Positions 1 to 39,241 of a stretch of 64,000 nt of DNA are shown here, one piece after another. The translations under genes and the position numbers were made by a program. Location of the stretch: assembly GCA_964016885.1 (NCBI GenBank), contig OZ024740.1:343790001-343854000 (forward strand), read 5' to 3'. Under the pieces are notes generated by a model. It ran no database searches and was not told where the DNA came from. It saw nothing but the letters and a program-made list of their open reading frames with translations. The stretch's first letter is position 1. Every line of letters starts with the position of its first letter. This DNA comes from Eledone cirrhosa (taxonomy: Eukaryota).

Positions 1-590
1 TAATTTAATATATCTACTAACATAAGCGCACAGATGTACGCTAATGCCAGCAAATACACAGATTATGTCATAGTACCTAGGTGGTTCAATGCAGGAGGAT
101 GCAGAACAATAATATAAAAGACGTAAATTAAGAAAATTTAAAAAAAAATTTTTTAAAAAATTAACTTACTTAAATTTTCACTCCAACTAATTAGTTTCTG
201 CAATGGGATAAAGACAGTTACGTAATGAACTGTTGAGAATTTCATTGCGTCATCAGGGAGATCTATTCTCAGCCAAGTCTCCAGGCAATGCGCGGACACT
301 GGGGACTCATATAAAAATAATAATAATCCGGTAAATGGAACAGCTATCGAGGACTGGATTCCAGGCACTGAAAATTCTCACTGCCACTGGTCGGATGGCC
401 GATTCTAAAGAATCAATCACGTGACACAGAGGCTAGTCAGTAGGAATGGGATGGTAAGATGACAGACGCCTACTAACACCCCCCAAAAAATTTAGAAGTG
501 GTTTTGCAGGTTTGCTCGACAAATCAGTGATCTGGAGATAAATATAGATAATTTAATATATCTACTAACATAAGCGCACAGATGTACGCA
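1..590 (-). mobile_element. ~0.55 kb non-coding hammerhead-bearing repeat (PLE pseudo-LTR (pLTR)/retrozyme-like), copy 1, partial tandem
   Basis: The first ~40 nt recur at ~549-589, giving a unit of ~548 nt. Clearly homologous to 1600-2315. Abuts (TA)n and contains a hammerhead motif. Confidence 0.7.
181..260 (-). ncRNA. Type I hammerhead ribozyme, variant with long loop II
   Basis: Minus strand: CTCC-CTGATGA-C-GCAATG...CATTGC-A-GAAA-CTAATTAG-TT^GGAG. Stem I is CTCC/GGAG, stem II GCAATG/CATTGC, stem III palindromic. Confidence 0.7.
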
Positions 591-703
591 TATATGTACA
601 TATATATACATATATATATATATACATATATATATATATGTATATATATACATATATATATATATATGTATATATATACATATATATATATGTATATATA
701 TAC

Positions 704-737
<34 letters not shown>

Positions 738-742
738 ATATG

Positions 743-797
<55 letters not shown>

Positions 798-822
798 GCA
801 TATATATATATGTATATATATG

Positions 823-868
<46 letters not shown>
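591..868. repeat. Imperfect (TA)n microsatellite
   Basis: TA run interrupted by CA/TG. Confidence 0.95.
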
Positions 869-870
<2 letters not shown>

Positions 871-1556
871 TATTGAAGTTTCCGTTGAAAATTGAAAAAG
901 TCATAGGAGTGAAGAGTGTTCTATGTAAGTACCAGAGCTAAATTTAATGTATAATAAACAATACAATATAATTACCTCATTAGCAGAGGTTTCCCGAATA
1001 AGACGAATACAAGAAACGTCCTCATTCATTCGTCGAACAAGGCAATTTAAAACATAGTGAAATATTTGAAGAATCTCCTCAAGAACGGCAAAAGTTTATA
1101 GGGCAAAAATATATATATAAGTAAAAGTAATGCAAGAGATATATGAAAATAAAATAAGGAAATATAGTTAGGGTATGTGTATAAATGTGTGTATATTCAT
1201 TCACAAATGTACATATGTGTGTATGCACAAATGTATGCGTACAGTGAATAAATGTGTGCGTAAGTACATATATGATGGAAAGCATATCAGTGTATGTGTG
1301 ACCACAAATACGTATATAATATACGTTGAAAAAGAAATTGTAAGATAATAGAGTTAACGTACATTCAGACTCAGGTTCTAAGGATTGAAATATATAAACA
1401 TACAAGCATGAAAGCACGCGTATAAACACACACACGCGCGTGACCACATACATGCGAGCGATATATACAGGTAAGGGAGTGTATCAGTCAAAGCAGTGTC
1501 AGGCTGAAGGTCGATATATATACAAAAATGATAAAATGAAAAAATATATGAGAATA

Positions 1557-1599
<43 letters not shown>

Positions 1600-1603
<4 letters not shown>

Positions 1604-2311
1604 AATTAGTATATCTACCAACATATGCGTATAGATGTACACTAATGCTAGCAAATACATAAGTTATGTCATAGTACCTAGGTGGTTCAATGCAGGAGGA
1701 TGCAGAACAAATATATGAAAGACGTAAATAAGAAAATTAAAAAAAAAATTAAAAATTAACTTACTTACTAAAATTTTCACTCCAACTAATTAGTTTCTGT
1801 AATGGGATAAAGATAGTTACGTAATATAACCATCGAGAATTCATTACGTCATCAGGGAGTCTATTCTCAGCTAAGTCTCCAGGCAATGCGCGGACACTAG
1901 TGACTCGTATAAAAATAATAATAATTCGGTGGATGGAACAGCTAGCGGGGACTGGATTCCATGCACTGAAAAAGTTCGTTGTCTCTGGTCAAATGGCAGA
2001 TTCTAAAGAATCAATCACGTGACACTGAGGCTAGTCGGAAGGAGTGGGTTGGTAAGATGACAAAAGCCTACTACCACACCAATGAATTAGTAGTGGATTT
2101 GGCAAGTTTGCTCAACAAATAAATAATTTGGAGATAAATATAAAGAATTAGTATATCTACCAACATATGCGTACAGATGTACACTAATGCTAGCAAATAC
2201 ATAAGTTATGTCATAGTACCTAGGTGGTTCAATGCAGGAGGATGCAGAACAAATATATGAAAGACGTAAATAAGAAAATAAAAAAAAAAAATTAAAAATT
2301 AACTTACTTAC

Positions 2312-2315
<4 letters not shown>
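1600..2315 (-). mobile_element. ~0.54 kb hammerhead-bearing repeat, copy 2, about 1.3 tandem units, flanked by (TA)n on both sides
   Basis: 1600-1772 is repeated almost exactly at 2142-2315. Homologous to 1-590. Confidence 0.75.
1779..1860 (-). ncRNA. Type I hammerhead ribozyme, variant, copy 2
   Basis: Minus strand: ACTCC-CTGATGA-C-GTAATG...CATTAC-A-GAAA-CTAATTAG-TT^GGAGT. Stem II covaries with copy 1. Confidence 0.72.
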
Positions 2316-2376
<61 letters not shown>

Positions 2377-9957: not shown

Positions 9958-11672
<1,715 letters not shown>

Positions 11673-11891
11673 TAAGTTCAAGATAGGGGCACACATAATA
11701 ACAAAGACAATGTCAAAAACAACGGAAAGACGGATAGTCCCATTTCCTTTCTCAACCTCTGGAAATCACTTATGTTTCGGTCCATTAAGGTTGATACCGT
11801 TCATACCAGTGTAGATCGGGACTAACAAAATAATGTAATAATGTAAAGACAAGTTATGCCTTTAGGCAAATTAAACAAGAGCTTAGACAAA

Positions 11892-19340: not shown

Positions 19341-22300
19341 CTACAGGCGCATGATCAGAGTAGGCCCACTCACGCGGGCCATTCTCGCCACATTCACCCA
19401 CCTTTCAGTAAATGTACTGGGGGGCAGCACTTCTCTCTCCACCCTCACCTTCCTTTCCAAGTGAAACTTGAAGAAGTTGATGAGGGATTGGCCGAAGAGA
19501 AAAGTGTCTGTCTTCAGTCCTTTCAACCTGGTCCACCATGCAACCTCTTTCGCTACTGCCACCAGGCAGAGGAAAATTGCCTGCCCTTCCTGACCAAAAG
19601 AAGGCGGCGGGTCAATCTTCACTATGGACTCGGACGATAGCCGGATCCGTTCTACACGCGACAATAGCTGTTCGACATAACCCCACAAGTCAGCAATGCA
19701 CGGACACTGGACGAGTGCGTGCAGAACGGTTTCGTCGCTCTGCGCGCATCTCGGGCAGGTTCGTCTGACAGCACTTCCGTGCCTGTAGAGTTTATCCCGA
19801 ACCGGCAGCGCCCCCCGGTAGCACTGCCAAGCGAGGGATTTCTGGAAGTTATCCATCGTCCCCGGCTCGAAAGTCCTCCGGAACATACTGGTCAGTTCTA
19901 CTTCGTTGACGCCCAGAGCCTCTCCTAGTACGTCATCGCACTTGCCCTCCACTAATCCTCTATAGAAATCTTGAGTGGAAGTTCCACTGACCGCATTGCC
20001 CACCTTGCAGAGTGCAGTGAGCGCCTGGCAACATTCCAGATGCCAGTCGCCCAGTCTCGGTCTCTTCTTGACCCAGGACTGCAGCTCAGTCAAAGAGATG
20101 AGCTGCGGAAAGGCCCGTCTAACAAACGGCGACCACACCTGTTCACCGTTTAGGCAAAATATCTGGAGATGTCGCAGCCTCAGCGCATGTCTGCGCATCA
20201 TTAGCCACGGCATGCCCAGCCCTCCACGAAGAGGGTGCTGGCAGCAGATGGACCGCCTCACCAACGGGACCCGTCCCCTCCACAAAAATTTGAAAAGGAG
20301 CCGTTCCAAATTGGCGAGGCGTGGACGGGGGCAAGGCACGACGGTCAGGCGGTAGTAGATGACGGACGCGATGTACGCGTTCGCCACCTCCGCCCGCCCT
20401 TTCAGTGATAGCTTTCTCTCAGCCCATTTCTGGGTGAGGTTGGCTATCCTGCTCGTCACCTCGTCCCAATTCTTATCCACCTGGAGGTCTGGTCCGAACC
20501 AAACCCCGAGCAACTTTACCGGTCCGTCTGTCCAGCGCCCAACGACGCTGTTGGACGGCATGGACTTGCCTCTCCAGGTGCCGAGCTGCAAGCCCACCGA
20601 CTTTTCCGGGTTAAGTTTTGCTCCCGTCAACTTTTCATATTCCTCCAAATGGGTGCGGATCACCTCGATTTCCGAGGTGTCCGACACCATCACGGTGATG
20701 TCGTCCGCATAAGCGGACGCAGCCTTTCTACGTCCCGGTTCGAGCGGGATGCCCTGCAACAACTCCAGCTTCCGCAGTAGAGGCTCAAGAGTCAATACGT
20801 ACAGAAGTGAGGAGAGAGGGCACCCTTGACGGACCGATCGAGAGATCTGAAACGGTTCCGAGAGGTGGCCATTAACTTTGACCACCGAGCGGATGCCGCT
20901 GTACATTGCAGCGATCCAGCTTCTGAAGACGGGGCCGAAGCCAGCCGCCTCGAGGACAGCCTCCAAGTACCGATGGTCGACCCTATCGAATGCTTTCGAT
21001 TGATCTAAATTGATCAGAGCCCCACCGAAGCCAGGTTTGCACCCAACCCTCTCTATGATGTATCGCATGAGGTGGAGGTTGTCGTGTATGGACCTGGTCG
21101 GGATTGCGCAAGTTTGCGCCTCCCCAACCAAATCTTTGACGACAAGCGCCAACCTTTTCGCTAACACCTTGGCCAAAATCTTAAACTCTGTGTTGAGCAG
21201 GGTTATGGGCCTGAAATTATCTAGTGTGTCCCTCTTGTTCTCGTCTTTCCTTATCAGCGTCACTACGCCACGGCTCACAGAACTGGGAATGCTCCCGTTC
21301 TGCTGCCAGTTGCAGTAGAGCGCTTCGAGGAGATCGGAGAACAAGTCTGGCATATTTACGTAAAGCTCGTAGGGCAGACCATCCAAACCGGGTGACTTGC
21401 GACTCGAGCAGCCGACAAGGGCGTCCTGAATTTCGGCTGATGTTATCGGCTCTTCGCAGCGCTCAGCGTCGGCCGTCGAGAGGCGTGGCAAGCCGTCGAG
21501 GTAGGGACTGAAGTCCGCCGCCATCTCCGACTCACCCATCCTCCCGAACAATCGAGCAAAGTGCTGGCGAAAGGCCTCACACATCCGCTTGGAATCGCTC
21601 AGTTCGTGTCCATCTCGATCCGTCAAAGACCGAATTGTGGTTTTATTTCCACGCTGCGTCTCTGCAAAGCGAGCCCATCGGGCAGCTTTGGTTCCCTCGT
21701 TCCTCAGAGCACGCGCCTTAGCTCTGACAATGCAACCTTCGTGTTTCGCATTGAAGAAATGGTCTAGTGCCATTCTCGCCGCTAGCACGTCTGTTGCAAT
21801 GCCACTACAAATAGCCTCGTCTAACTTAGCTATCAGCCCCTCCTCCTTTCTATTTTTCTCTATTGCTACTTCTTTGCTAAATCCTATCGAGGTTGCTCTA
21901 ATCTCTCTTTTGAGTGCCCCCCACCACCTGTTGTTGACAACCCCCCCTGTCAACTTTTGCTTAACTAAGTTGTTGACCCGGTCCCTGTAAGCTTTACGTG
22001 CCGGAAACGACATGTTTAGCTTCCAGTAGCTAGGTCCTAACCTACGTGTCTTATCTAGGTCGACCATACAGATCACAAGCTTGTGATCTGAATAGGCAAC
22101 CGTTTTAAAATGTGGACATCCTACACTATTTCTATCTCTTTTCCTAATGAAAATCCTATCTATGTACGATCTAGATGACCCTATGCGATTGGTCCAGGTC
22201 CATACTGGCGCATTAGGGAAATCTAGTCGGTACCTGTCAGACAGTTGAAACTGGCTGATCAGGTACTTGAGGCTTTTGCACCCCCCGCTCCTATCAGATA

Positions 22301-22760
22301 CTCCCACACAATCCCAGCGTGCTTCTAAGATGCCATTCCAATCCCCTATTAACAGTAAAGGGCGAGACGTAAGCAGAAAGTTTTCCAGGCGCCTAAAGAA
22401 GTCCGGCCGACCGGCCCCAGTAGGGGCGTAGACGGCCACCAGTCTAAAGGCACCACCTTCGCTATTGCTCACGTCCAGGACCACCAACTTTCCGTCAGGA
22501 TCCCGGAAGATTGACCTTACCTCGAGATCCAGACATTTCCTAAACAGCACAGCCACTCCACCTCCCATTCCCGGCCGACTAACAGATGCAAAGATCTGAT
22601 AATCGTCGAAAATCGGCGCCAGTGCGCGTGTGTCGGAAATTCTGGTCTCGCTGATGGCAATTACATCCATTCCTAGTGACCTGAGGTCGTTGAGCAAGTG
22701 ACCTTGCTTCCAGGGCGACCCCAGGCCACGAACATTTAAACTTCCTACTCTTATGGCCAT
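19341..22760 (-). CDS. ORF2: APE endonuclease, reverse transcriptase and C-terminal CCHC zinc finger (Tx1-like), 1139 aa
   Basis: APE motifs NVRGL, SET, VYAP, GDWN, IDR, SDH. RT motifs KSPGLDG, FRPITLLN, DQSKAFDRV, RQGCPLS, YADD. Zinc finger CPRC-x8-H-x4-C. Confidence 0.96.
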   Translation of the reverse strand: MAIRVGSLNVRGLGSPWKQGHLLNDLRSLGMDVIAISETRISDTRALAPIFDDYQIFASVSRPGMGGGVAVLFRKCLDLEVRSIFRDPDGKLVVLDVSNSEGGAFRLVAVYAPTGAGRPDFFRRLENFLLTSRPLLLIGDWNGILEARWDCVGVSDRSGGCKSLKYLISQFQLSDRYRLDFPNAPVWTWTNRIGSSRSYIDRIFIRKRDRNSVGCPHFKTVAYSDHKLVICMVDLDKTRRLGPSYWKLNMSFPARKAYRDRVNNLVKQKLTGGVVNNRWWGALKREIRATSIGFSKEVAIEKNRKEEGLIAKLDEAICSGIATDVLAARMALDHFFNAKHEGCIVRAKARALRNEGTKAARWARFAETQRGNKTTIRSLTDRDGHELSDSKRMCEAFRQHFARLFGRMGESEMAADFSPYLDGLPRLSTADAERCEEPITSAEIQDALVGCSSRKSPGLDGLPYELYVNMPDLFSDLLEALYCNWQQNGSIPSSVSRGVVTLIRKDENKRDTLDNFRPITLLNTEFKILAKVLAKRLALVVKDLVGEAQTCAIPTRSIHDNLHLMRYIIERVGCKPGFGGALINLDQSKAFDRVDHRYLEAVLEAAGFGPVFRSWIAAMYSGIRSVVKVNGHLSEPFQISRSVRQGCPLSSLLYVLTLEPLLRKLELLQGIPLEPGRRKAASAYADDITVMVSDTSEIEVIRTHLEEYEKLTGAKLNPEKSVGLQLGTWRGKSMPSNSVVGRWTDGPVKLLGVWFGPDLQVDKNWDEVTSRIANLTQKWAERKLSLKGRAEVANAYIASVIYYRLTVVPCPRPRLANLERLLFKFLWRGRVPLVRRSICCQHPLRGGLGMPWLMMRRHALRLRHLQIFCLNGEQVWSPFVRRAFPQLISLTELQSWVKKRPRLGDWHLECCQALTALCKVGNAVSGTSTQDFYRGLVEGKCDDVLGEALGVNEVELTSMFRRTFEPGTMDNFQKSLAWQCYRGALPVRDKLYRHGSAVRRTCPRCAQSDETVLHALVQCPCIADLWGYVEQLLSRVERIRLSSESIVKIDPPPSFGQEGQAIFLCLVAVAKEVAWWTRLKGLKTDTFLFGQSLINFFKFHLERKVRVEREVLPPSTFTERWVNVARMARVSGPTLIMRL

Positions 22761-22789
22761 GCTGGCAGGATGAATGGGAGAGGAAAGGT

Positions 22790-24700
22790 TTACTTACCTT
22801 CCGGGGTCTTGTGAAGGTCGGGTGGTTCGACCTCCATGGTTTGTGGGGTTTCTTTTGGGAACCCCTTTAATAGTCTTGACGTGGGTTTTACGTTCGGGGT
22901 TCCCACATCCCGAGGAAAGCTCTTTCGAATTTCTTTGTATGAAGCGAGCGACATTCGCATCAGAAGCAAATTATCTGGTACGCGAAATGTGCTCGCTTCA
23001 AATGTTTCCCCGTCTTTTTCGATGTTTGTGCTTCGTGCTACATGGGCCATCAATTCCTTGTTGGCCCTTCTGGCAAGCACGAAGTTTTTAATGTTTTGTT
23101 GCTCGGGTTTTATTTGTTCGTGTGATTGTGGTGGTGATAGCTTTGTTAGTGTTGTTTCTATTGTGTCTGCGTTTGTTGTGGGTGGGGTGTCTGTAGTTTC
23201 TGATGTTTGTGTGTCTATTTGTTCTTGTGTCTGTTTAGCTTGTTTGCGTTTGGGGGATTTTGGTGGTTGTGTTGGTGATGCTGTGGGGAAAATGTTTGTG
23301 TGGGTGGTGTGTGTATTTTTTTTTGTGGGGGTGTTTGTGCTTTGTGGATTTCTTTTTTTTTTGTGTTTTGTTTTTTGTATTTTGGGGGACTTTGGTTTTC
23401 CCTCATCTTCACTGCTGGAGGATGAGGGGTCTGTGGCTGTGAGCGTGTTTGTGTCTGAGTGAGTGTTTATGTTCTTGTTCGTGTGTGTATTTTGGGGGGG
23501 AGGGGGAATGGGAGAGCTTTCCTCGTTTCCCCCCTGGGTGTGCAATTTTGGTGGTTCCATTGTTGACGGTGTTGCTGGTGGTCCTTGTCCCGGCGTCGCC
23601 AGCAGTGGAATCTTTCGACCCCTTGCGCTTTTCGGCAGTTGAGGGCAGAAGGCTCGCAAGTGTGTCGTTTCCCCACAAAGGAAACAATGCGGCCTTTTGC
23701 CCTCAGTCATTATATGCAACACCCTCCCGTTTTGGAGGCGGATGTGGTCCGGGATTGTTTTTACGTTTTCGGGTCTGATTTGGAGCAGTATCTCCAGATC
23801 AACCCCGGACCAGTCGTCCCTGGCAGTTCTCGTTGCCTCTACCGGGACTGTATCCGTTCCTTCCACGATTACGCAACCCAGGAGCCACCACATATCAAGT
23901 CCTGGTGGAATCCTGGGAATGCGCACACGTGCTATTCGTTTTCCCATGTGGGAGGGGTACATTATGACCTTGCTGGTTTTGCAAGGGGTCATTGAATGCT
24001 TCACAGCGAGGGCTTCAGACTTGAACAGCACCGAAACGGTGCCGTATTGCCTGCCCCTCTCTATGAAGTCTGTGTCCTCTCTGATGTATTTCAGTGCGGC
24101 TTCTATGTCAGCTTGGGCGATTATCGCTGCCCTCTTTGTCTCTACTGAGATGCATCTGAAATGCACCGTTCTTTTTTCCACTGCCTCAATGGCTTCTGCC
24201 GGGACAGTTAAGTTTGCCCAGGTCTGCTCTTGATTTATGATTTTCCAGGCCTGGGCCAACTTTTCCTCTCTGTTGGTTAAGTCGATGCTGTAGCATGGTC
24301 TCCTTTTAGCCGCTGCCACAGCAGCGAAAGTGTTCTTGTTGGTGTTGTCACTGTTGTTGTTCTTGTTGGTGTTGCTGCTGCTATTGCTGTTGTTGTTCTC
24401 CCCTGTGTCGTGGTTACCCTCTGTGCTGTTGGCCTTGTTGGTGCTGCTGCTGTCGCTACTATTACTCTCTGTGCTGTTCGTTTTGTTGGTGCTCTCGCTA
24501 TTACCACCTTCTGCGCTGTTCGGCTTGTTGGTGTTGGTGTTGTCGCTGTTACCACCTTCCGCGCCGCTCGGCCCGTTGGTGCTGGCACTGTCGCTGCTCA
24601 CATTCGTGCTGGTGGCGCTCCTCGCCTCACCTCTCCTCTCAACGCTCAAGTCGCCGTTGCACGACAGCAGACCCGCCTCTAGGGGGCGTGGCTCCGCCAT
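22790..24700 (-). CDS. ORF1: gag-like nucleic-acid-binding protein with a CCHC zinc knuckle, 636 aa
   Basis: CFLCGETTHLRAFC (CX2CX4HX4C). S/N/T-rich N-terminus, P/T/K-rich linker. Lies just upstream of ORF2 on the same strand. Confidence 0.9.
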   Translation of the reverse strand: MAEPRPLEAGLLSCNGDLSVERRGEARSATSTNVSSDSASTNGPSGAEGGNSDNTNTNKPNSAEGGNSESTNKTNSTESNSSDSSSTNKANSTEGNHDTGENNNSNSSSNTNKNNNSDNTNKNTFAAVAAAKRRPCYSIDLTNREEKLAQAWKIINQEQTWANLTVPAEAIEAVEKRTVHFRCISVETKRAAIIAQADIEAALKYIREDTDFIERGRQYGTVSVLFKSEALAVKHSMTPCKTSKVIMYPSHMGKRIARVRIPRIPPGLDMWWLLGCVIVEGTDTVPVEATRTARDDWSGVDLEILLQIRPENVKTIPDHIRLQNGRVLHIMTEGKRPHCFLCGETTHLRAFCPQLPKSARGRKIPLLATPGQGPPATPSTMEPPKLHTQGGNEESSPIPPPPQNTHTNKNINTHSDTNTLTATDPSSSSSEDEGKPKSPKIQKTKHKKKRNPQSTNTPTKKNTHTTHTNIFPTASPTQPPKSPKRKQAKQTQEQIDTQTSETTDTPPTTNADTIETTLTKLSPPQSHEQIKPEQQNIKNFVLARRANKELMAHVARSTNIEKDGETFEASTFRVPDNLLLMRMSLASYKEIRKSFPRDVGTPNVKPTSRLLKGFPKETPQTMEVEPPDLHKTPEGK

Positions 24701-24910
24701 GTTTTTTTGAGAAAAAAATTATTATTTTTTTTCAAAATAAAGTTCAAATATTTGGGCCAAAAGGCCCAAATATTATGAGTTATTCCTTCACAGGATACAA
24801 ATTAATGTCTTATAATGCTTCAGCGGTACAAAAAATAAACAATTCTCTACAATTAATCCTCAAAAATTGCTTACTCACGGAGCTTCAAAAAACGTACATC
24901 CACTATCGTC

Positions 24911-24985: not shown

Positions 24986-26728
24986 CAGAAGAATAATAGT
25001 AGTTCGTTCTAAATTTCAAATTCTATATGGATTGTAGATTTATCGATAAATTAAGTCGTTAAATTATTGCAGAGCAAATATTATTTACATAATATCTTTG
25101 TCTATCTAAATTGACTTAACCTTAGCACAACATCTTTTAATGTTTACTTTATTTTCTATCTTTTCTTCATTCTTTGTCTTTCTTTGCCTGCTTATTTATT
25201 TATTTATGTATTTATTTATTTATTTATTTATTCTATTTATTTATTTATTTTATTTATTTATTTATTTATTTATTCTGTTTTCTTTCTTGTTTTTGATTTT
25301 TTCTATTTTGAATAATATTGTAATATTGCAAATAATTATGCAGGATGAATGAATTAAAGGTGGTTAGATGAGGTTAGGTGTTAAGATATTCGTGTATAGT
25401 ATGTGTTTGTAAACGTATGTTTATATATGAATGTCTATTGGTTAGAGGTTGTGTATGTGTATGTTTATAGAAGCATTGTGTGCATGTAAATGTGTGTATT
25501 GAAATATGTACGCCTGAGCTTGGTGTGTGTGGAGTATTTGTATGAAGTGAAGAGAATGATTGTAGCAAAATTATATAGAATACATATTTGTATATTATGT
25601 ATGTATGTATTTGCACACACGCACACACACACATATATATATAGACACTTATATATATAGACACTTATAGACATATATGTATATCTATATATATATATTT
25701 ATATGTATACATACATACTTACACACACGCACACACACATATATGTGTTTATATATATATGTGTTTATATATATATATATACACATACAAATACACATAA
25801 AATTAGTTGCGTCTATTTGGTATTTTTTTTTTCTTTCATTTGCGAATTTTTGAATTTTAATAAGCTGTTGAGAAGATTTTAATTCAATGGTTTACTAATG
25901 TAGTTTGCTCTCCAACTTATTGAGATGTATCATTATCATCGGATTTATTGTATACAGGTGTCTAACGTGAAGGTGTAAACATAATTTACAGCTTTAATCT
26001 ACAACTGTCTGGCTGTTCAGATGGTTTGTCTCTGTGAAATTTCTCTGTAGACTTGAAAATGTTTGACGCGACATTTGCAACTTAGATGTCTGATCATATA
26101 TGTGGAAAGTAAGGAGAAGGCGATATTTCACGTTTGCTTTAATAAAGCAAGAGAACTACACTGAAGAGTTGAAATAAGTTAGAAACGTATGCAACGTATG
26201 CGGTGAATTGTCAGAGTTGCTAGAGCCTACGACAAAATACCTTGAAGCATTAATTTCTGCTTGCTGCAGTTTGTGTGCGAAATTTCGCCGAGTTCAACTT
26301 TTACTTTCATCCTCCCGGTGTCGATAAAATAAAGAGTTCGTCCAAAATGGTGGATTGACTCTATCATTGGATGCGATAACATGTGCATCCATGTAACACA
26401 TCCCATGTGGCAGCCCGATATAAGTATTATAAATTAATCAATGATATTTTTCCAGAATTATATGAAGTGTGATATTACCATATGAGAATTTGGAGGAAAT
26501 GCTACGATAGCATGCTATTGTAAAGGTTTGGACAAAAAAAGGTAAAGAAAAAGAAACAAACATAAAAAAGCAACGGAGAGAGAGAGGGAGAGGGGGGAGG
26601 CAGAAAGAGGCATGAGAGAAATGATGTCATATGATACATACACGCATGCGTACACAGGCAGGCAAATACCGAAGTATGTTCATTTCTATAATAGTCAATC
26701 CATTTATCCAACCATATTATCAGCCAAG

Positions 26729-26784
<56 letters not shown>

Positions 26785-27789
26785 CCCTCTGGCAGGCGGA
26801 TCCGGTTATCAGTGGAGACTCCACCGCAACATTCTATAGAGGGCTGGTACGCAGCAGGTGCGACGACGCCCTCGGAGAAGCCCTAGACATGGAGGAGGAC
26901 GAACTGGCCGGCCTGTTCGGTAGGACATTCAACCCGGGACCTATGGACAACTTCCAGAAGTCCCTGGCCTGGCAGTGCTACCGAGGAGCTTTACCCGTTC
27001 GAGAAAGGCTCTACAGACACGGGCGCCCGGGTAGGGACCCCGCCAAAAAGATCTGTCCCAGATGCGTGTGCGACAAGGAAACCGTTGCACACGCATTGGT
27101 ACACTGCTCGGGCGTAGCCGATCTGTGGGGCTATGTCGAACAACTGCTGTCAAGGGTGGGACCGATCCGGTTGACCACCGAGTCTATTGTAATGATCAAG
27201 CCGCCTCCTCCCTTCAAAGATGAAGCAGAGGCGGTGTTTTTGTGCGTAATAGCCATGGCGAAAGAGGTTGTATGGTGGACGCGTCTGAAAGGACTGAGGT
27301 CAGGCACCTTTCTCTCTGGCCAACAACTGGTCCGTTTCTTCCGATATCATTTCGGAAGAAGGATCAGGATGGAGAGAGAGGTGCTGCACCCCAGTCGTTT
27401 TTATGAAAGGTGGGTGAAAGTGGCGAGAATGGCCCGTGTGAATGGGCCTTCTCTTTACATGAGCCTGTAGGTGGAAAAGAGGAAGGAACGAGGGAGCACC
27501 CCCTCTCTGTGCTCCTGAGGAAAAGGGTTGCACACTTTTTTCGGGGGTGTGTGCGACCCCCCAAGGCGCCTCCTCCCTATTGAGGATTTTGTTATAAATT
27601 TTATTTTTTGTTATATTTTATAACAAAATCCTCTATTAAGGATTTTGTTATAATTCTATTTTTTGTTATATTTTATTTTATTTTTATATATTGTTATTGC
27701 CTTCTCCCTATTGAGGACGCCTTGTTTTGTAAACTCCCCCCATTGTACTTGTCCCACTTTTGATGCCCTTGTGGCAAATAAAAGAAACA

Positions 27790-27790
<1 letters not shown>
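26785..27790 (+). mobile_element. 5'-truncated Tx1-like LINE, sister family B (ORF2 C-terminus and 3'UTR), bounded by (ATCT)n
   Basis: The peptide FYRGLV..CDDALGEAL...MDNFQKSLAWQCYRGALPVR...CPRC..ETVAHALVHC...VARMARVNGPSL aligns with the end of the 1139-aa ORF2. Stop at 27470. Confidence 0.92.
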
Positions 27791-27856
<66 letters not shown>

Positions 27857-27897
27857 ACATCTATCTATCTATCTATCTATCTATTTATCTATCTATC
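27791..27897. repeat. (ATCT)n between the two family-B copies; a further (ATCT)14 lies at 26729-26784
   Basis: Direct reading. Confidence 0.95.
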
Positions 27898-28447
27898 CTC
27901 CCCTCTTCAAAAACGAAGGAGATGCGGTGTTTCTGTGCGTAATAGCCATGGTGAAAGAGGTTGTATGGTGGACGCGTCTGAAAGAACTGAGGTCAGACAC
28001 CTTTCTCTCTGGCCAACAACTTGTCCATTTCTTCCGATATTATTTCGGAAGAAGGATCAGGATGGAGAGAGAGGTACTGCACCCCAGCCGTTTTTATGAA
28101 AGATGGGAGAAAGTGGCGAGAATGGCCCGTGTGAATGGGCCTTCGCTCTACATCAGACTGTAGGTGAGAAAGATGAAAGATAAAGGGACCACCTTCTCTC
28201 TGTGCTCCTGAGGAGAAGGGTTACACACTTTTTTCGGGGTGTGTGTGCGACCCCCCAAGGCGCCTCTTCCCTATTGAGGATTTTGTTATTCAATTTATTT
28301 TTGTTATATTTTATATTTTTATATTTTTATATTTTGTTATTGCCTCCTCCTTATTGAGGACGCCTTTTTATTTACATAAAAAGGCGTCCTCAATAAGGAG
28401 GAGGCATTGTACTCTTTGATGCCCTGGTGGCAAATAAAAAGAAAGTT
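27898..28447 (+). mobile_element. Second, shorter 5'-truncated family-B Tx1 copy, followed by (ATCT)3
   Basis: AVFLCVIAMVKEVVWWTRLK...VNGPSLYIRL. The 3'UTR is homologous to 27471-27790. Confidence 0.9.
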
Positions 28448-31869: not shown

Positions 31870-34750
31870 CAGATTAAAGTTTAAGCAAATAATCGCTGCT
31901 TTCACCCTTAACGGGATCTTCTGAAACTAACAAAGTCAATCTGTAAACGCAGAAGTGGATATTTAAAAAAACGTTGCAACCGGAGGAAGACAGGAAGACG
32001 ATACTTTGGTTCGTGGAAACGCTCGCTGGCAAAGAACGGGAAAAAACGAATATAATACGTCATTAATAGGAGCGGTGAAAAACAATTACGCGCAAAGATA
32101 GAACCACGTTTATGGTATAAAAGAGGTCGTAGACTAATGTTCTCTTAGGTGGTTCATAGAGACGTTCTCTGGCAATGAACGAAAAAAAAAACGAAGATAA
32201 TACGTCATATGTGGAGCGTGGAGAATAATAGCACGCAAAGACAAAACCACGTAAATGGTATAGCAGAAGTCGTAGACTAAAATTCTAACTAGGAGACCGA
32301 ATGAATCTCCGCTTCAGAGTTAGGAACAAAGTAAATAAATACAATACAGAAGTAATAGAAATAAATAAATACATACACGCAAACAAATACGTACATACAC
32401 AAGCATACGCAGAACACTTACCGTCGGTATACAAAACCACGCACATATAAATATGTGTGTGTGTGTATGCGTGTATACAAATAAATAAATAATTATATAA
32501 ACGTATATAAATAAATAAATACGTATATAACAAGCGCACACACATACCTACATGTAAATACACGAATGTTCGGAGACGTAAGTCAACCAAAACATGAAGT
32601 ACACATATACACACACCCTACATACGTACGAACCAGCATACTCACACAGACGCAAAACTCCTGTATACACATAGCCAAACCATATGTACCAGAATATATA
32701 AAATTATACGCCATAACATAAACAATCAAATTTACGTATGAGAAGGTATACGTACCTTCACAAAACATACGGGTAAAATATACTTACCTATGCAAATAAG
32801 TAATGGTATAAACAAAACATACTTAGCTCCCACATCAAGACGTAAAATATCCACGTATAAATCGTACTATCCGTTAGGGTATAACGTGGGGCTGTAATAC
32901 AGGAAAGTTTTGTGCAATTTATGTTTACAAGCCGAAATTGCCTCAGATTTTTTGTTTAAGATGTGGTCTGTGGCGTAGAGTATTTCCAGGGCCTCAGCGG
33001 CGCAGAGGTCACATGGTCTTTTATTTCCGTTATATGATCTAGCCCTAGCTAGGATCTCCCAGTGTAACTTATATTGGGTGTGGTTGTCTTTTAGACTCCA
33101 GATATAAGCTGAAAGTGACGTCATATTCCTTCTTAGAGGGTAACGAAAAGAATGGGTATGCATGTAAAGACGCTGCTTGAATCTATTGGCGGTTAACCCT
33201 ATGTAGGCCCTACGGGACGTGGGTGTTACAACCTTACATATGTAGACAATGTTACAGGGAGGCATTTCCCGGATAGGGGGCAATCAACCCAATTCCTACA
33301 ATTACAGTTAGTACTAACTACAGGGTTGCACGTGTTCCTACGGCCAGGCAGTTTAGATAAATTTGAAGCTGTGATGTTATGTGCATGGTTAGGAGTCGTA
33401 GAGTAAGAAATTTTAATAGTATTTCTATAAAAAATTTTACTATACTTATGTGTAGGGGGAAAATGCTTCGTAATAAGGGAAAGAAAGATCTTAGCTAATG
33501 GTGTGGCCACCTCCATATGATATGGTGGATTATACCAACAAATGCGACGGGATCTATTTCTTCTAGGTCTATTTTTGTACTCTGTATATGCTACCTTATC
33601 GACAAATCCACTTCGAGCAAGAGCTTCATTGTAATAAGTGGAATGGTCGTTGAAAATACGCTCATTGATGGAAAGACGGGAAAACCTCAACGAAACGTTT
33701 CTTACCAGGTTCTTGGTTATGCTGGCAGGATGGTTGGAATGCTTACTTATGTAATTAAGCGTATCATTCGGCTTTCTATACGGGTAATACAACCCATTCA
33801 ATAAATTGAGGGTAACGTCGAGGTAATTAACGACTGAGAGATTGGCCTCAACCTGTATAGAGAGGTTGAAGCCTTTAAAGAAGGCTGTGAGTTCTTTTCT
33901 GAACCTGTCGCACGCACGAGGTCCGCACTTAGTCATGGTCAAAAGACCATCGTCACGGTACAAACCACCGCCCGCGTTGGGGAATTCGTCCTTGGTAGAG
34001 GAAAGAAGGAAAAGGCCGATAAGATCAGTATCTCCGCAGAATCACTGGCGCCCATACTCACGTCGAATGGGGTACTATTGGATTTTTAATCCAAATAGAG
34101 TCGTCGAAATTAATCACCGACTTTCGGGCATTGAGGATGACATCAACTTCGAAATCCTTAACCACTGTGAGTGTTTTAGCGAAATTGATACCTCTAAGGA
34201 GAAGTGGTAAAGTGATGGAGGAGTAGTAATTGTTGATGTCGAATTGGATAAAACGGCAATGTTCCTTGTTACATATGCCGTTGAACCAATCAATCACCGC
34301 GAAAGAATTGTTCCATAGTGCAAGAGGGGCCAAAATTCTAATTTCAGGTATAATTCTATCAAGAATCGTTTTACTAAGTCTACCTAAATCGGACTTCGTA
34401 GGGTTAATAAGCCGATGATGGTATAAAAGAGATCGTAGACTAATGTTCTCTTAGGTGGTTCATAGAGACGTTCTCTAGCAATGAACGACAAAAACGAAGA
34501 TAATACGTCACATGTGGAGCGTGGAGAACAATAGCACGCAAAGACAAAACCACGTAAATGGTATAGCAGAAGTCGTAGACTAAAATTCTAACTAGGAGAC
34601 CGAATGAATCTCCGCTACAGAGTTAAGAACAAAGTAAATAAATACAATACAGAAGTAATAGAAATAAATAAATACCTACACGCAAACAAATACGTACATA
34701 CACAAGCATACGCAGAACACTTACCATCGGTATACAAAACCACGCACATT
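31870..34750 (-). mobile_element. Penelope-like element of Naiad type, 5'-truncated, with tandem pLTR
   Basis: RT plus GIY-YIG coding remnant. 34418-34748 is a direct repeat of 32112-32445. Confidence 0.88.
32867..34414 (-). pseudogene. Frameshifted PLE ORF: RT, CxC-x5-CP-x2-G-x-C linker and GIY-YIG endonuclease
   Basis: RLINPTKSDLG, QFDINNYYSSI, FDVSMGASDSAEI, GLYRDDGL, NYLDVTL, SNHP, WYNPP, CNCRNWVDCPLSGKC, IVY..YIG..FKQR..H, CDLCAAE, LNKKSE..CKH. About three frameshifts. Confidence 0.9.

Positions 34751-37794: not shown

Positions 37795-39241
<1,447 letters not shown>

Follow-up and report, generated by a model that had tools for sequence, protein, structure and literature searches.

A putative variant type I hammerhead ribozyme conserved in a ~545-nt non-coding retroelement of Eledone cirrhosa

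We analysed a 64-kb stretch of the Eledone cirrhosa genome (C1:343790001-343854000 of the 2.996-Gb assembly GCA_964016885.1, C1 being contig OZ024740.1), hereafter the window. Two 80-nt type I hammerhead-like folds were found in it, both on the minus strand and both within copies of a repeat of about 545 nt. Our analysis makes it probable that they belong to a conserved variant of the type I hammerhead ribozyme, which lies in the sense orientation in a non-coding retroelement with units of ~525-545 nt. The ribozyme is predicted to cleave itself after a GUU triplet, likely as a dimer, and the element is likely mobilised in trans by a Penelope-like element (PLE). That a three-way junction of hammerhead type is under selection is supported, because its helices covary strongly and its core is invariant across sub-families that are ~74-86% alike.

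Anatomy and genome-wide conservation of the motif

The two folds were read from the sequence, and their parts follow one another in the same order (Table 1). The 5′ strand of helix I is followed by CUGAUGA, an extra C, a 6-bp helix around 37 nt, an extra A and GAAA. After GAAA come the palindrome CUAAUUAG (with its neighbours, AACUAAUUAGUU), U16.1, U17 and the 3′ strand of helix I, GGAG(U). The core nucleotides C3, U4, G5, A6, N7, G8 and A9 and the nucleotides G12, A13 and A14 are placed on the correct strands, and both copies have the A15.1-U16.1 pair and a base other than G at position 17 (GAAA-C...G-U-U/G). Every feature that a preliminary description of this stretch had listed for both copies, namely CUGAUGA, GAAA, stem I, a palindromic stem III and GUU, was present. 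The double compensatory change that it had reported for stem II (GCAAUG/CAUUGC against GUAAUG/CAUUAC) is a real change from C-G to U-A, and the C.A apposition at the place of the canonical G10.1-C11.1 pair was seen in both copies. A covariance model built from genomic relatives, as had been proposed, recovered the two copies and nothing further at E ≤ 1 in the 64 kb.

Table 1. Window coordinates of the insertions, the hammerhead-like motifs and their parts
Feature	Position in window	Strand	Details
Insertion 1	1..590	-	full unit, preceded in element orientation by a ~35-40-nt 5′-truncated partial unit (551-590)
Motif copy 1	180..260	-	sequence, fold, covariance model match 159-283 at 124.1 bits
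Copy 1 helix I	260-257 / 184-181	-	CUCC / GGAG
Copy 1 core	256-250 and 198-195	-	CUGAUGA and GAAA
Copy 1 apposition	249 / 199	-	C opposite A
Copy 1 helix II (IIa)	248-243 / 205-200	-	GCAAUG / CAUUGC
Copy 1 enclosed 37 nt	242-206	-	internal loop and hairpin IIb
Copy 1 palindrome (helix III)	196-185	-	AACUAAUUAGUU
Copy 1 predicted cleavage	between 185 and 184	-	GUU/G
(AT)n target microsatellite, 3′ flank of insertion 2	1560..1600	.	Tandem Repeats Finder (TRF)
Insertion 2	1601..2314	-	1.31 units: unit 374-545 (2315-2143), then 1-545 (2145-1601)
Best-conserved module	1675..1880 (about unit 265-435)	-	~30 nt upstream, hammerhead, and tail ending ...CGUCUUUCAUAUAU at unit 435 (window ~1711)
Motif copy 2	1779..1860	-	sequence, fold, covariance model match 1758-1881 at 147 bits
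Copy 2 helix I	1859-1856 / 1783-1780	-	(A)CUCC / GGAG(U)
Copy 2 core	1855-1849 and 1797-1794	-	CUGAUGA and GAAA
Copy 2 apposition	1848 / 1798	-	C opposite A
Copy 2 helix IIa	1847-1842 / 1804-1799	-	GUAAUG / CAUUAC
Copy 2 hairpin IIb	1834-1826 / 1820-1812	-	
Copy 2 palindrome (helix III)	1795-1784	-	
Copy 2 predicted cleavage	between 1784 and 1783	-	
(AT)n microsatellite, 5′ flank of insertion 2	2315..2376	.	TRF

Searches of the genome showed that the motif is abundant. The pattern CTGANGANGN{40,62}CAGAAACTAATTAGTT gave 10,326 matches (5,584 + 4,742), against 0 + 0 for the reversed pattern, and a pattern that excludes the two sub-families of the window still gave 3,217 matches against 0 for its reversed form. 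The matches are distributed over many sub-families. The search with the 545-nt unit returned 2,822 first-look candidates, 40 of which were scored and yielded 121 matches, mostly of 93-97% identity. For a second family, which shares only ~74% identity along the unit, there were 2,410 first-look candidates. A metagenome scan with the motif pattern returned three stretches, two of them identical, none of which had helix II complementarity; these were chance matches.

Counts made independently of the alignment described below showed that the core, the non-Watson-Crick N.A apposition and the 12-nt palindromic helix III are truly constant between sub-families. Against the 10,326 intact copies, 94 scattered copies had an altered G12, 48 carried another base in place of the A before GAAA, and at most 43 had a base other than U at 15.3, several of these last rows being unrelated. 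Among the copies found by BLAST only, 44 of the 54 complete motifs were exact and the other 10 had single point changes. The preliminary description had named absence of core conservation across copies as part of the result that would speak against it; the core was found to be invariant across the sub-families. N7, in turn, differs between sub-families and can be any of the four bases (U, C, G or A). Variation therefore follows the rules of the hammerhead: N7 is free, and catalytic positions are altered in scattered single copies only. CUGANGA is followed by C, in one sub-family by A, and the U variants at this place look like CpG decay. The 10.1/11.1 layer is C.A in most sub-families and A.A in one, and no Watson-Crick pair closes helix II on the core. 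The next helix II pair is an invariant G-C, although both of its letters are fixed by the genome search patterns.

Covariation and folding of the junction

The 122 loci collected gave 121 distinct motif instances (180 occurrences). Eight instances were dropped for a truncated 5′ flank or a nested match, and merging of rows identical in the motif and in six flanking bases on each side left 105. From these, 55 were taken into the alignment, a few per sub-family, omitting most of the variants with a single change in the two commonest families. RNAalifold recovered helix I, the 6-bp helix IIa, a hairpin IIb and helix III from these 55 natural copies. In the observed alignment 98.1% of the cells were paired, against 90.0% after shuffling, and none of 500 shuffles reached this value. 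Seven pairs changed on both sides (3.8 in shuffles; reached by 1 of 500), and the covariation score was 0.282 against 0.132 (reached by 0 of 500). When the partners were slid by 1-3 columns, only 26-50% of the cells were paired. These results leave almost no room for a chance resemblance, in which the repeat would merely hold CUGAUGA and GAAA. That Rfam does not call the motif could be taken in its favour, but it is refuted by the reversed-pattern controls, all of which gave 0, and by covariation beyond that of 499-500 of 500 shuffles.

Covariation was strong in helix II. One pair of helix IIa is found in all four Watson-Crick types (UA 25, AU 21, GC 7, CG 2), and two further pairs switch between AU and UA and between GC and UA. 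The genome lists contained more versions of this helix, such as GAAAUG/CAUUUC, GUAUGG/CCAUAC and GGGAUG/CAUUCC. The 37 nt enclosed by helix IIa had been taken for a simple loop II; RNAalifold, the pair counts and the folds showed that they form an internal loop and the second hairpin, IIb, in which 4 of 4 pairs change on both sides.

This bears on the suggestion that the words CAUUAC/UAUUAC in the helix II loop are an alternative partner for helix II and serve as a folding switch. The words themselves are present in both window copies, but their place is the apical loop of hairpin IIb, a covarying hairpin in its own right. In other sub-families this loop is of UUCG type or unrelated and holds no such word, and the minimum-free-energy folds never use the switch pairing. 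A switch of this kind is therefore very unlikely.

Helix I, when read directly, is ACUCC/GGAGU, ACUUCC/GGAAGU, ACUUCC/GGGAGU, ACUUC/GGAGU or ACUUUC/GGAAGU by sub-family, and an uncompensated version, ACUUCC/GGAGU, also occurs. Between sub-families, a base added to one strand thus has its partner added to the opposite strand. Conserved internal loops are found next to helix I and between IIa and IIb, and an extended helix I drawn past the internal loop does not covary.

Single sequences from five sub-families fold with helices I, IIa and IIb. The minimum-free-energy fold of copy 2 contains these three helices at -19.8 kcal/mol (z -2.24). Two copies together fold at -49.2 kcal/mol, compared with 2 x -19.8. 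In this predicted dimer helix III is a 12-bp duplex, helix I forms in trans and the core is left free, as in the classical double hammerhead. Two other sub-families that were tested gave the same result. The dimer through the palindromic stem III, as earlier proposed, would thus be favoured energetically in silico.

Repeat unit, insertions and mobilisation

As the unit we used the minus strand of window positions 1601-2145 (545 nt), which was searched by BLAST against the window. Its GC content is 35.4%, and only spurious open reading frames (ORFs) were found in the units. Unit length is ~525-545 nt, and the spacing of copies is 524-571 nt across sub-families. Whole-unit alignment of 15 sub-family representatives showed column conservation of 0.89-0.95 in 20-nt windows of the hammerhead, of the ~30-nt flank upstream of it and of the tail to unit 435, and of 0.3-0.7 elsewhere. 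Folded from one cut site to the next, the whole unit reaches -140.8 kcal/mol compared with -104.5 ± 6.5 for 100 shuffles (z -5.6).

The window contains two insertions of this unit. Insertion 1 (~1.07 units) belongs to the sub-family with helix II GCAAUG/CAUUGC; unit 4-540 corresponds to window 546-5 at 85.8% identity and unit 506-540 to window 587-553. It differs in sub-family from insertion 2, with 85.8% identity over 548 columns. TA-rich microsatellite flanks it on both sides, namely the TRF rows at 590-868 and the last 200 bases directly upstream of the window. The element had been described as a ~545-nt tandem. This holds within each insertion, but the two hammerheads of the window, 1,599 nt apart, lie in separate insertions and not in neighbouring units. 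Elsewhere a five-unit array was found at C1:380318734-380321459. Among ~200 motif positions listed and inspected by eye, same-strand neighbours were ~0.5 kb apart, in one case ~1.1 kb, and none were 3-7 kb apart.

We examined 30 composites around copies of the family, after one locus had been dropped for overlap with another. All but one (29/30) were longer than one unit, up to ~2.9 units. Both orientations were present in 17 of the 30, as a head-to-head inverted 5′-truncated piece, and a TA-rich flank was present in 27. Their 60 outer ends comprised 47 3′ ends and 13 5′ ends, in the orientation of the hammerhead sense. Of the outer 3′ ends, 46 of 47 fell at unit 431-435 (18) or 540-545 (28), the latter often followed by (CT)n(TA)n, and both recurrent ends are at UAUAU words of the unit (~435 and ~545). 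The 13 outer 5′ ends were scattered between unit 6 and 511. Since the 3′ ends are fixed and the 5′ ends scattered in this orientation, the hammerhead-sense RNA is shown to be the template. In PMC8557442, tail-end, partial-tandem and inverted 5′-truncated copies are given as usual for PLE insertions, with a bias for (TA)n, and the pattern found here matches that description, (TA)n bias included.

The element had been proposed to be a retrozyme-like or pseudo-long-terminal-repeat (pLTR) family. By anatomy and architecture it is like a non-LTR retrozyme; the second part of the proposal did not hold in our sample. On such a reading, the ~545-nt unit would be the pLTR or the 3′ end of an autonomous PLE, seen as truncated tail-end copies. 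PLE ORF fragments do occur near several copies, and tail-end, partial-tandem and inverted copies are the insertion form just cited for PLEs. The genome is also rich in PLEs, with 10,597 first-look GIY-YIG candidates and intact ORFs of 636-1,096 codons in which reverse transcriptase (RT) precedes endonuclease (EN), the canonical order, in 4 of 4 cases. But the variant motif was present at 0 of 34 PLE loci (30 GIY-YIG loci and 4 loci with intact ORFs), a small sample of >10,000 candidates, and the sampled PLEs carry compact or minimal hammerheads of their own, unrelated in sequence to the variant. Where PLEs adjoin copies, microsatellite lies between them and the unit, and they inserted separately into the same arrays. 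Moreover, a pLTR does not agree with the absence of same-strand motif neighbours 3-7 kb apart among the ~200 positions or with the 524-571-nt spacing in all sub-families. We therefore regard a pLTR or PLE 3′ end as improbable.

We favour a separate non-coding element which was likely mobilised in trans by a Penelope-like RT/EN. Its RNA template would be a multimer or a circle. Reverse transcription may start at the internal UAUAU words (unit ~435 and ~545), which match the (TA)n target, by microhomology, and may run through more than one unit.

Some neighbouring elements were recorded in the course of this work. At C2:177486808-177492092 there is a near full-length canonical PLE (RT then GIY-YIG, with broken frames), in partial tandem with an inverted piece. 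It has a compact CUGAAGA...GAAA hammerhead in its terminal repeat, and it lies in (TA)n, directly beside a copy of the 545-nt unit. Within the window, a frameshifted remnant of a canonical PLE (RT motifs, CxC...CPL linker, GIY-YIG) was found on the minus strand at 32867-34450, with no variant hammerhead nearby. Also on the minus strand, at 19341-24718, is an apparently intact long interspersed nuclear element (LINE), with an uninterrupted 1,150-codon frame (endonuclease-/RT-like) preceded by a 642-codon frame. C-terminal fragments of a related LINE ORF2 are present at 26625-27470 and 27654-28163, adjoining (ATCT)n/(TATC)n arrays. The window has 108 TRF rows in its 64 kb, for example 1.4 kb of (AT)n at 37795-39241 and 0.55 kb at 11129-11674, and the retroelements described sit in and between such long simple-repeat arrays.

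Cleavage potential and comparison with known hammerheads

On the reading that we prefer, self-cleavage is predicted to occur directly 3′ of GUU, likely in a dimer held together by the palindromic helix III, and would release unit-length RNA. The internal loop between IIa and IIb may stand where loop 2 of an ordinary hammerhead contacts helix I, and the non-Watson-Crick N.A layer may be tolerated, perhaps at the price of needing the dimer. Catalysis, the release of unit-length RNA and the circles are all predictions. Four sequencing runs, examined as Logan contigs, behaved like DNA of the same organism and yielded no information on RNA ends, strand or circles.

Several observations weigh against this reading. 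The pattern used to select all rows of the alignment already imposed the letters of the core and of helix III, and the genome patterns likewise prescribe the opening G and the closing C of helix IIa. Invariance of these parts within the alignment is thus by construction, and the argument from invariance rests instead on the independent genome and BLAST-only counts. The column counts of helix I, a helix which MAFFT mis-registers, show one-sided changes only; support for helix I is real but weaker than for helix II. When helix I is extended past the internal loop, the number of pairs with changes on both sides is 0, as in shuffles. In 4 of the 5 sub-families folded, the core CUGAU is bound to the AUUAG in helix III in the monomer's minimum-free-energy fold (1855-1851 to 1792-1788 of the window, with the equivalent pairing in copy 1). 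This conformer would be inactive. The sub-family with N7 = C loses the pairing and forms a helix III hairpin instead. The mobilising element was not found among the 30 GIY-YIG loci and 4 intact RT-EN ORF loci, that is, among 34 of >10,000 candidates.

The remaining points concern the motif as a ribozyme. The Rfam hammerhead models (RF00163, RF00008 and RF02275-7) gave no match at the gathering score in the 64 kb, nor any at E ≤ 10 on 151-nt slices, save for a mis-registered Hammerhead_3 row of 13.4 bits. The canonical G10.1-C11.1 pair is replaced by C.A, or by A.A in one sub-family. G10.1 shares a metal site with the phosphate of A9, and activity may therefore be low or absent. As a precedent, one viroid hammerhead likewise carries an additional nucleotide behind A9. 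The 5′ ends of truncated copies that abut (TA)n had no sharp peak at the predicted cleavage site and scattered from -16 to +12, as judged by eye from about 25 distinct places in the first 100 rows of a (TA)5-anchored pattern scan with 1,338 overlapping matches.

In another explanation, the fold descends from a hammerhead but has lost catalysis and is kept as a structured 3′ module that is recognised by the reverse transcriptase, the multimers arising from template jumps or tandem transcripts. The mismatch in all sub-families, the failure of the Rfam models and the 5′ ends without a peak all agree with it. So does the position of the motif, within a conserved ~170-nt 3′ module and ~75 nt upstream of a recurrent 3′ end, and PLE families without canonical hammerheads are said to proliferate well in PMC8557442. 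However, sub-families whose other sequence diverges by up to ~26% all retain the eleven core nucleotides, the A15.1-U16.1 pair and a base other than G at position 17. Within the core only N7 is free to vary, in keeping with the rule for hammerheads, and the palindrome on which a double hammerhead would depend is also constant. In addition, a mismatch at the base of helix II is tolerated in active retrozyme hammerheads of the axolotl, as reported in PMC7229834. We consider a dead descendant doubtful, and retain the variant ribozyme as the preferred explanation.

A narrower form of the ribozyme reading can be put forward tentatively. In it, the fixed C.A/A.A layer and the two-part helix II, with an internal loop in place of loop 2, would define a class of obligate dimers that cuts only multimers and produces circles of ~545 nt, which a PLE would copy by a rolling-circle mode from the UAUAU words on nicked (TA)n. 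Were this so, standard searches would miss the class, and similar hidden ribozymes may sit in other PLE-rich genomes regarded as hammerhead-less. If the motif is active in any form, the hammerhead core tolerates a conserved 10.1/11.1 mismatch layer and a ~50-nt helix II, which would widen the known range of natural hammerheads, and curated models and descriptors miss a family of >10,000 copies in one genome. The insertions also provide a clean natural data set on retrozyme mobilisation, with two UAUAU 3′ ends, variable 5′ ends, multimers and inverted pieces in (TA)n. These data are relevant to the question of whether PLE-type reverse transcription uses circular RNA as its template. With its relatives, the family contributes to the connection of PLEs with this genome's very high content of microsatellites.

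Other small structured elements were also seen in this genome. A 311-nt retrozyme-like unit is present in perfect tandem (100% identical units) at C1:22620302-22621455; in the sequence stretch that holds this tandem (at 302-1455 there), an inverted copy lies at 1-303. Each unit carries a compact hammerhead-like motif of type I; A-U replaces G-C as the first pair of its helix II, and its helix III is the 6-nt palindrome ACGCGU. The canonical Rfam Hammerhead_1 model matched 18 of 74 scored candidates over its 34-bit cut-off (best 37.8 bits), for example at C3:10277077-10277121; these matches have a short helix III (ACA U UGU) and the triplet GUC, and represent a further repeat family. A full-length Arthropod_7SK match below the cut-off (40.6 bits against 44) was found at C2:194684573-194684853 on the plus strand.

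No description of the variant architecture was found in the openly accessible literature, and a prior description is possible, as subscription journals were outside the scope. With the minimal hammerheads in PLE pLTRs (PMC8557442, PMC7229834), the variant shares the PLE context, the type I topology and a helix III whose length does not suffice for a stable hairpin. Those hammerheads differ in being compact and in lying in autonomous elements beside an RT-EN ORF.

The 'HHR_half_core' of Naiad PLEs (Craig et al. 2021, PMC8557442) is similar in that the core halves are tens of nt apart, standard descriptors miss it, and (TA)n is preferred. It was rejected as a relative, since GAAAC lies ~22 nt upstream of CUGAUGA, in the opposite order, in the two 3′ ends compared (Naiad_Ovul and another consensus). 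No ORF of Naiad type, with EN before RT, was seen among the 4 intact ORFs.

The pDo500 satellite of Dolichopoda cave crickets (PMC2837043) has a ~500-bp unit in which the hammerhead is better conserved than the remainder. Helices I and II of this ribozyme show compensatory changes, and a double-hammerhead form has been proposed for it, as here. It differs in being a tandem satellite with a compact 49-nt hammerhead, and its changes at G10.1-C11.1 give compensatory pairs instead of a fixed mismatch.

The mismatch itself has a counterpart in HHR_Amex2 of the axolotl (PMC7229834), a retrozyme hammerhead in which U.U stands at the foot of helix II. Its cleavage is weak in the monomer and improves in the dimer, and a weak helix III is common to both ribozymes. 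HHR_Amex2 has a short helix II, whereas the variant has C.A or A.A, a long helix II and a perfect 12-nt palindrome as helix III. Further natural variants of the hammerhead core are on record (PMC3088659).

Animal non-LTR retrozymes are reported as short, low-GC, non-coding repeats with one type I hammerhead that occur as dimers to multimers, and are thought to be non-autonomous derivatives of PLEs (Cervera & de la Pena 2020, PMC7229834; Li, Clavereau & Pollet 2026, preprint 10.64898/2026.07.22.740005). The E. cirrhosa element has in common with them the low GC content, one type I hammerhead per unit, dimers to multimers, a species-specific sequence, the association with PLEs and a helix III that favours dimers. 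It differs in its longer unit (525-545 nt against ~150-450 nt), in its long, two-part helix II (6 bp, an internal loop and a 4-9-bp hairpin, against a short stem-loop), in the fixed N.A layer between core and helix II, and in being invisible to Rfam. It occurs mostly as dispersed 1-3-mers in (TA)n rather than as long arrays. Judged by its sequence, the element fits the animal non-LTR retrozymes and would be a structural variant within the known kind of hammerhead and retrozyme.

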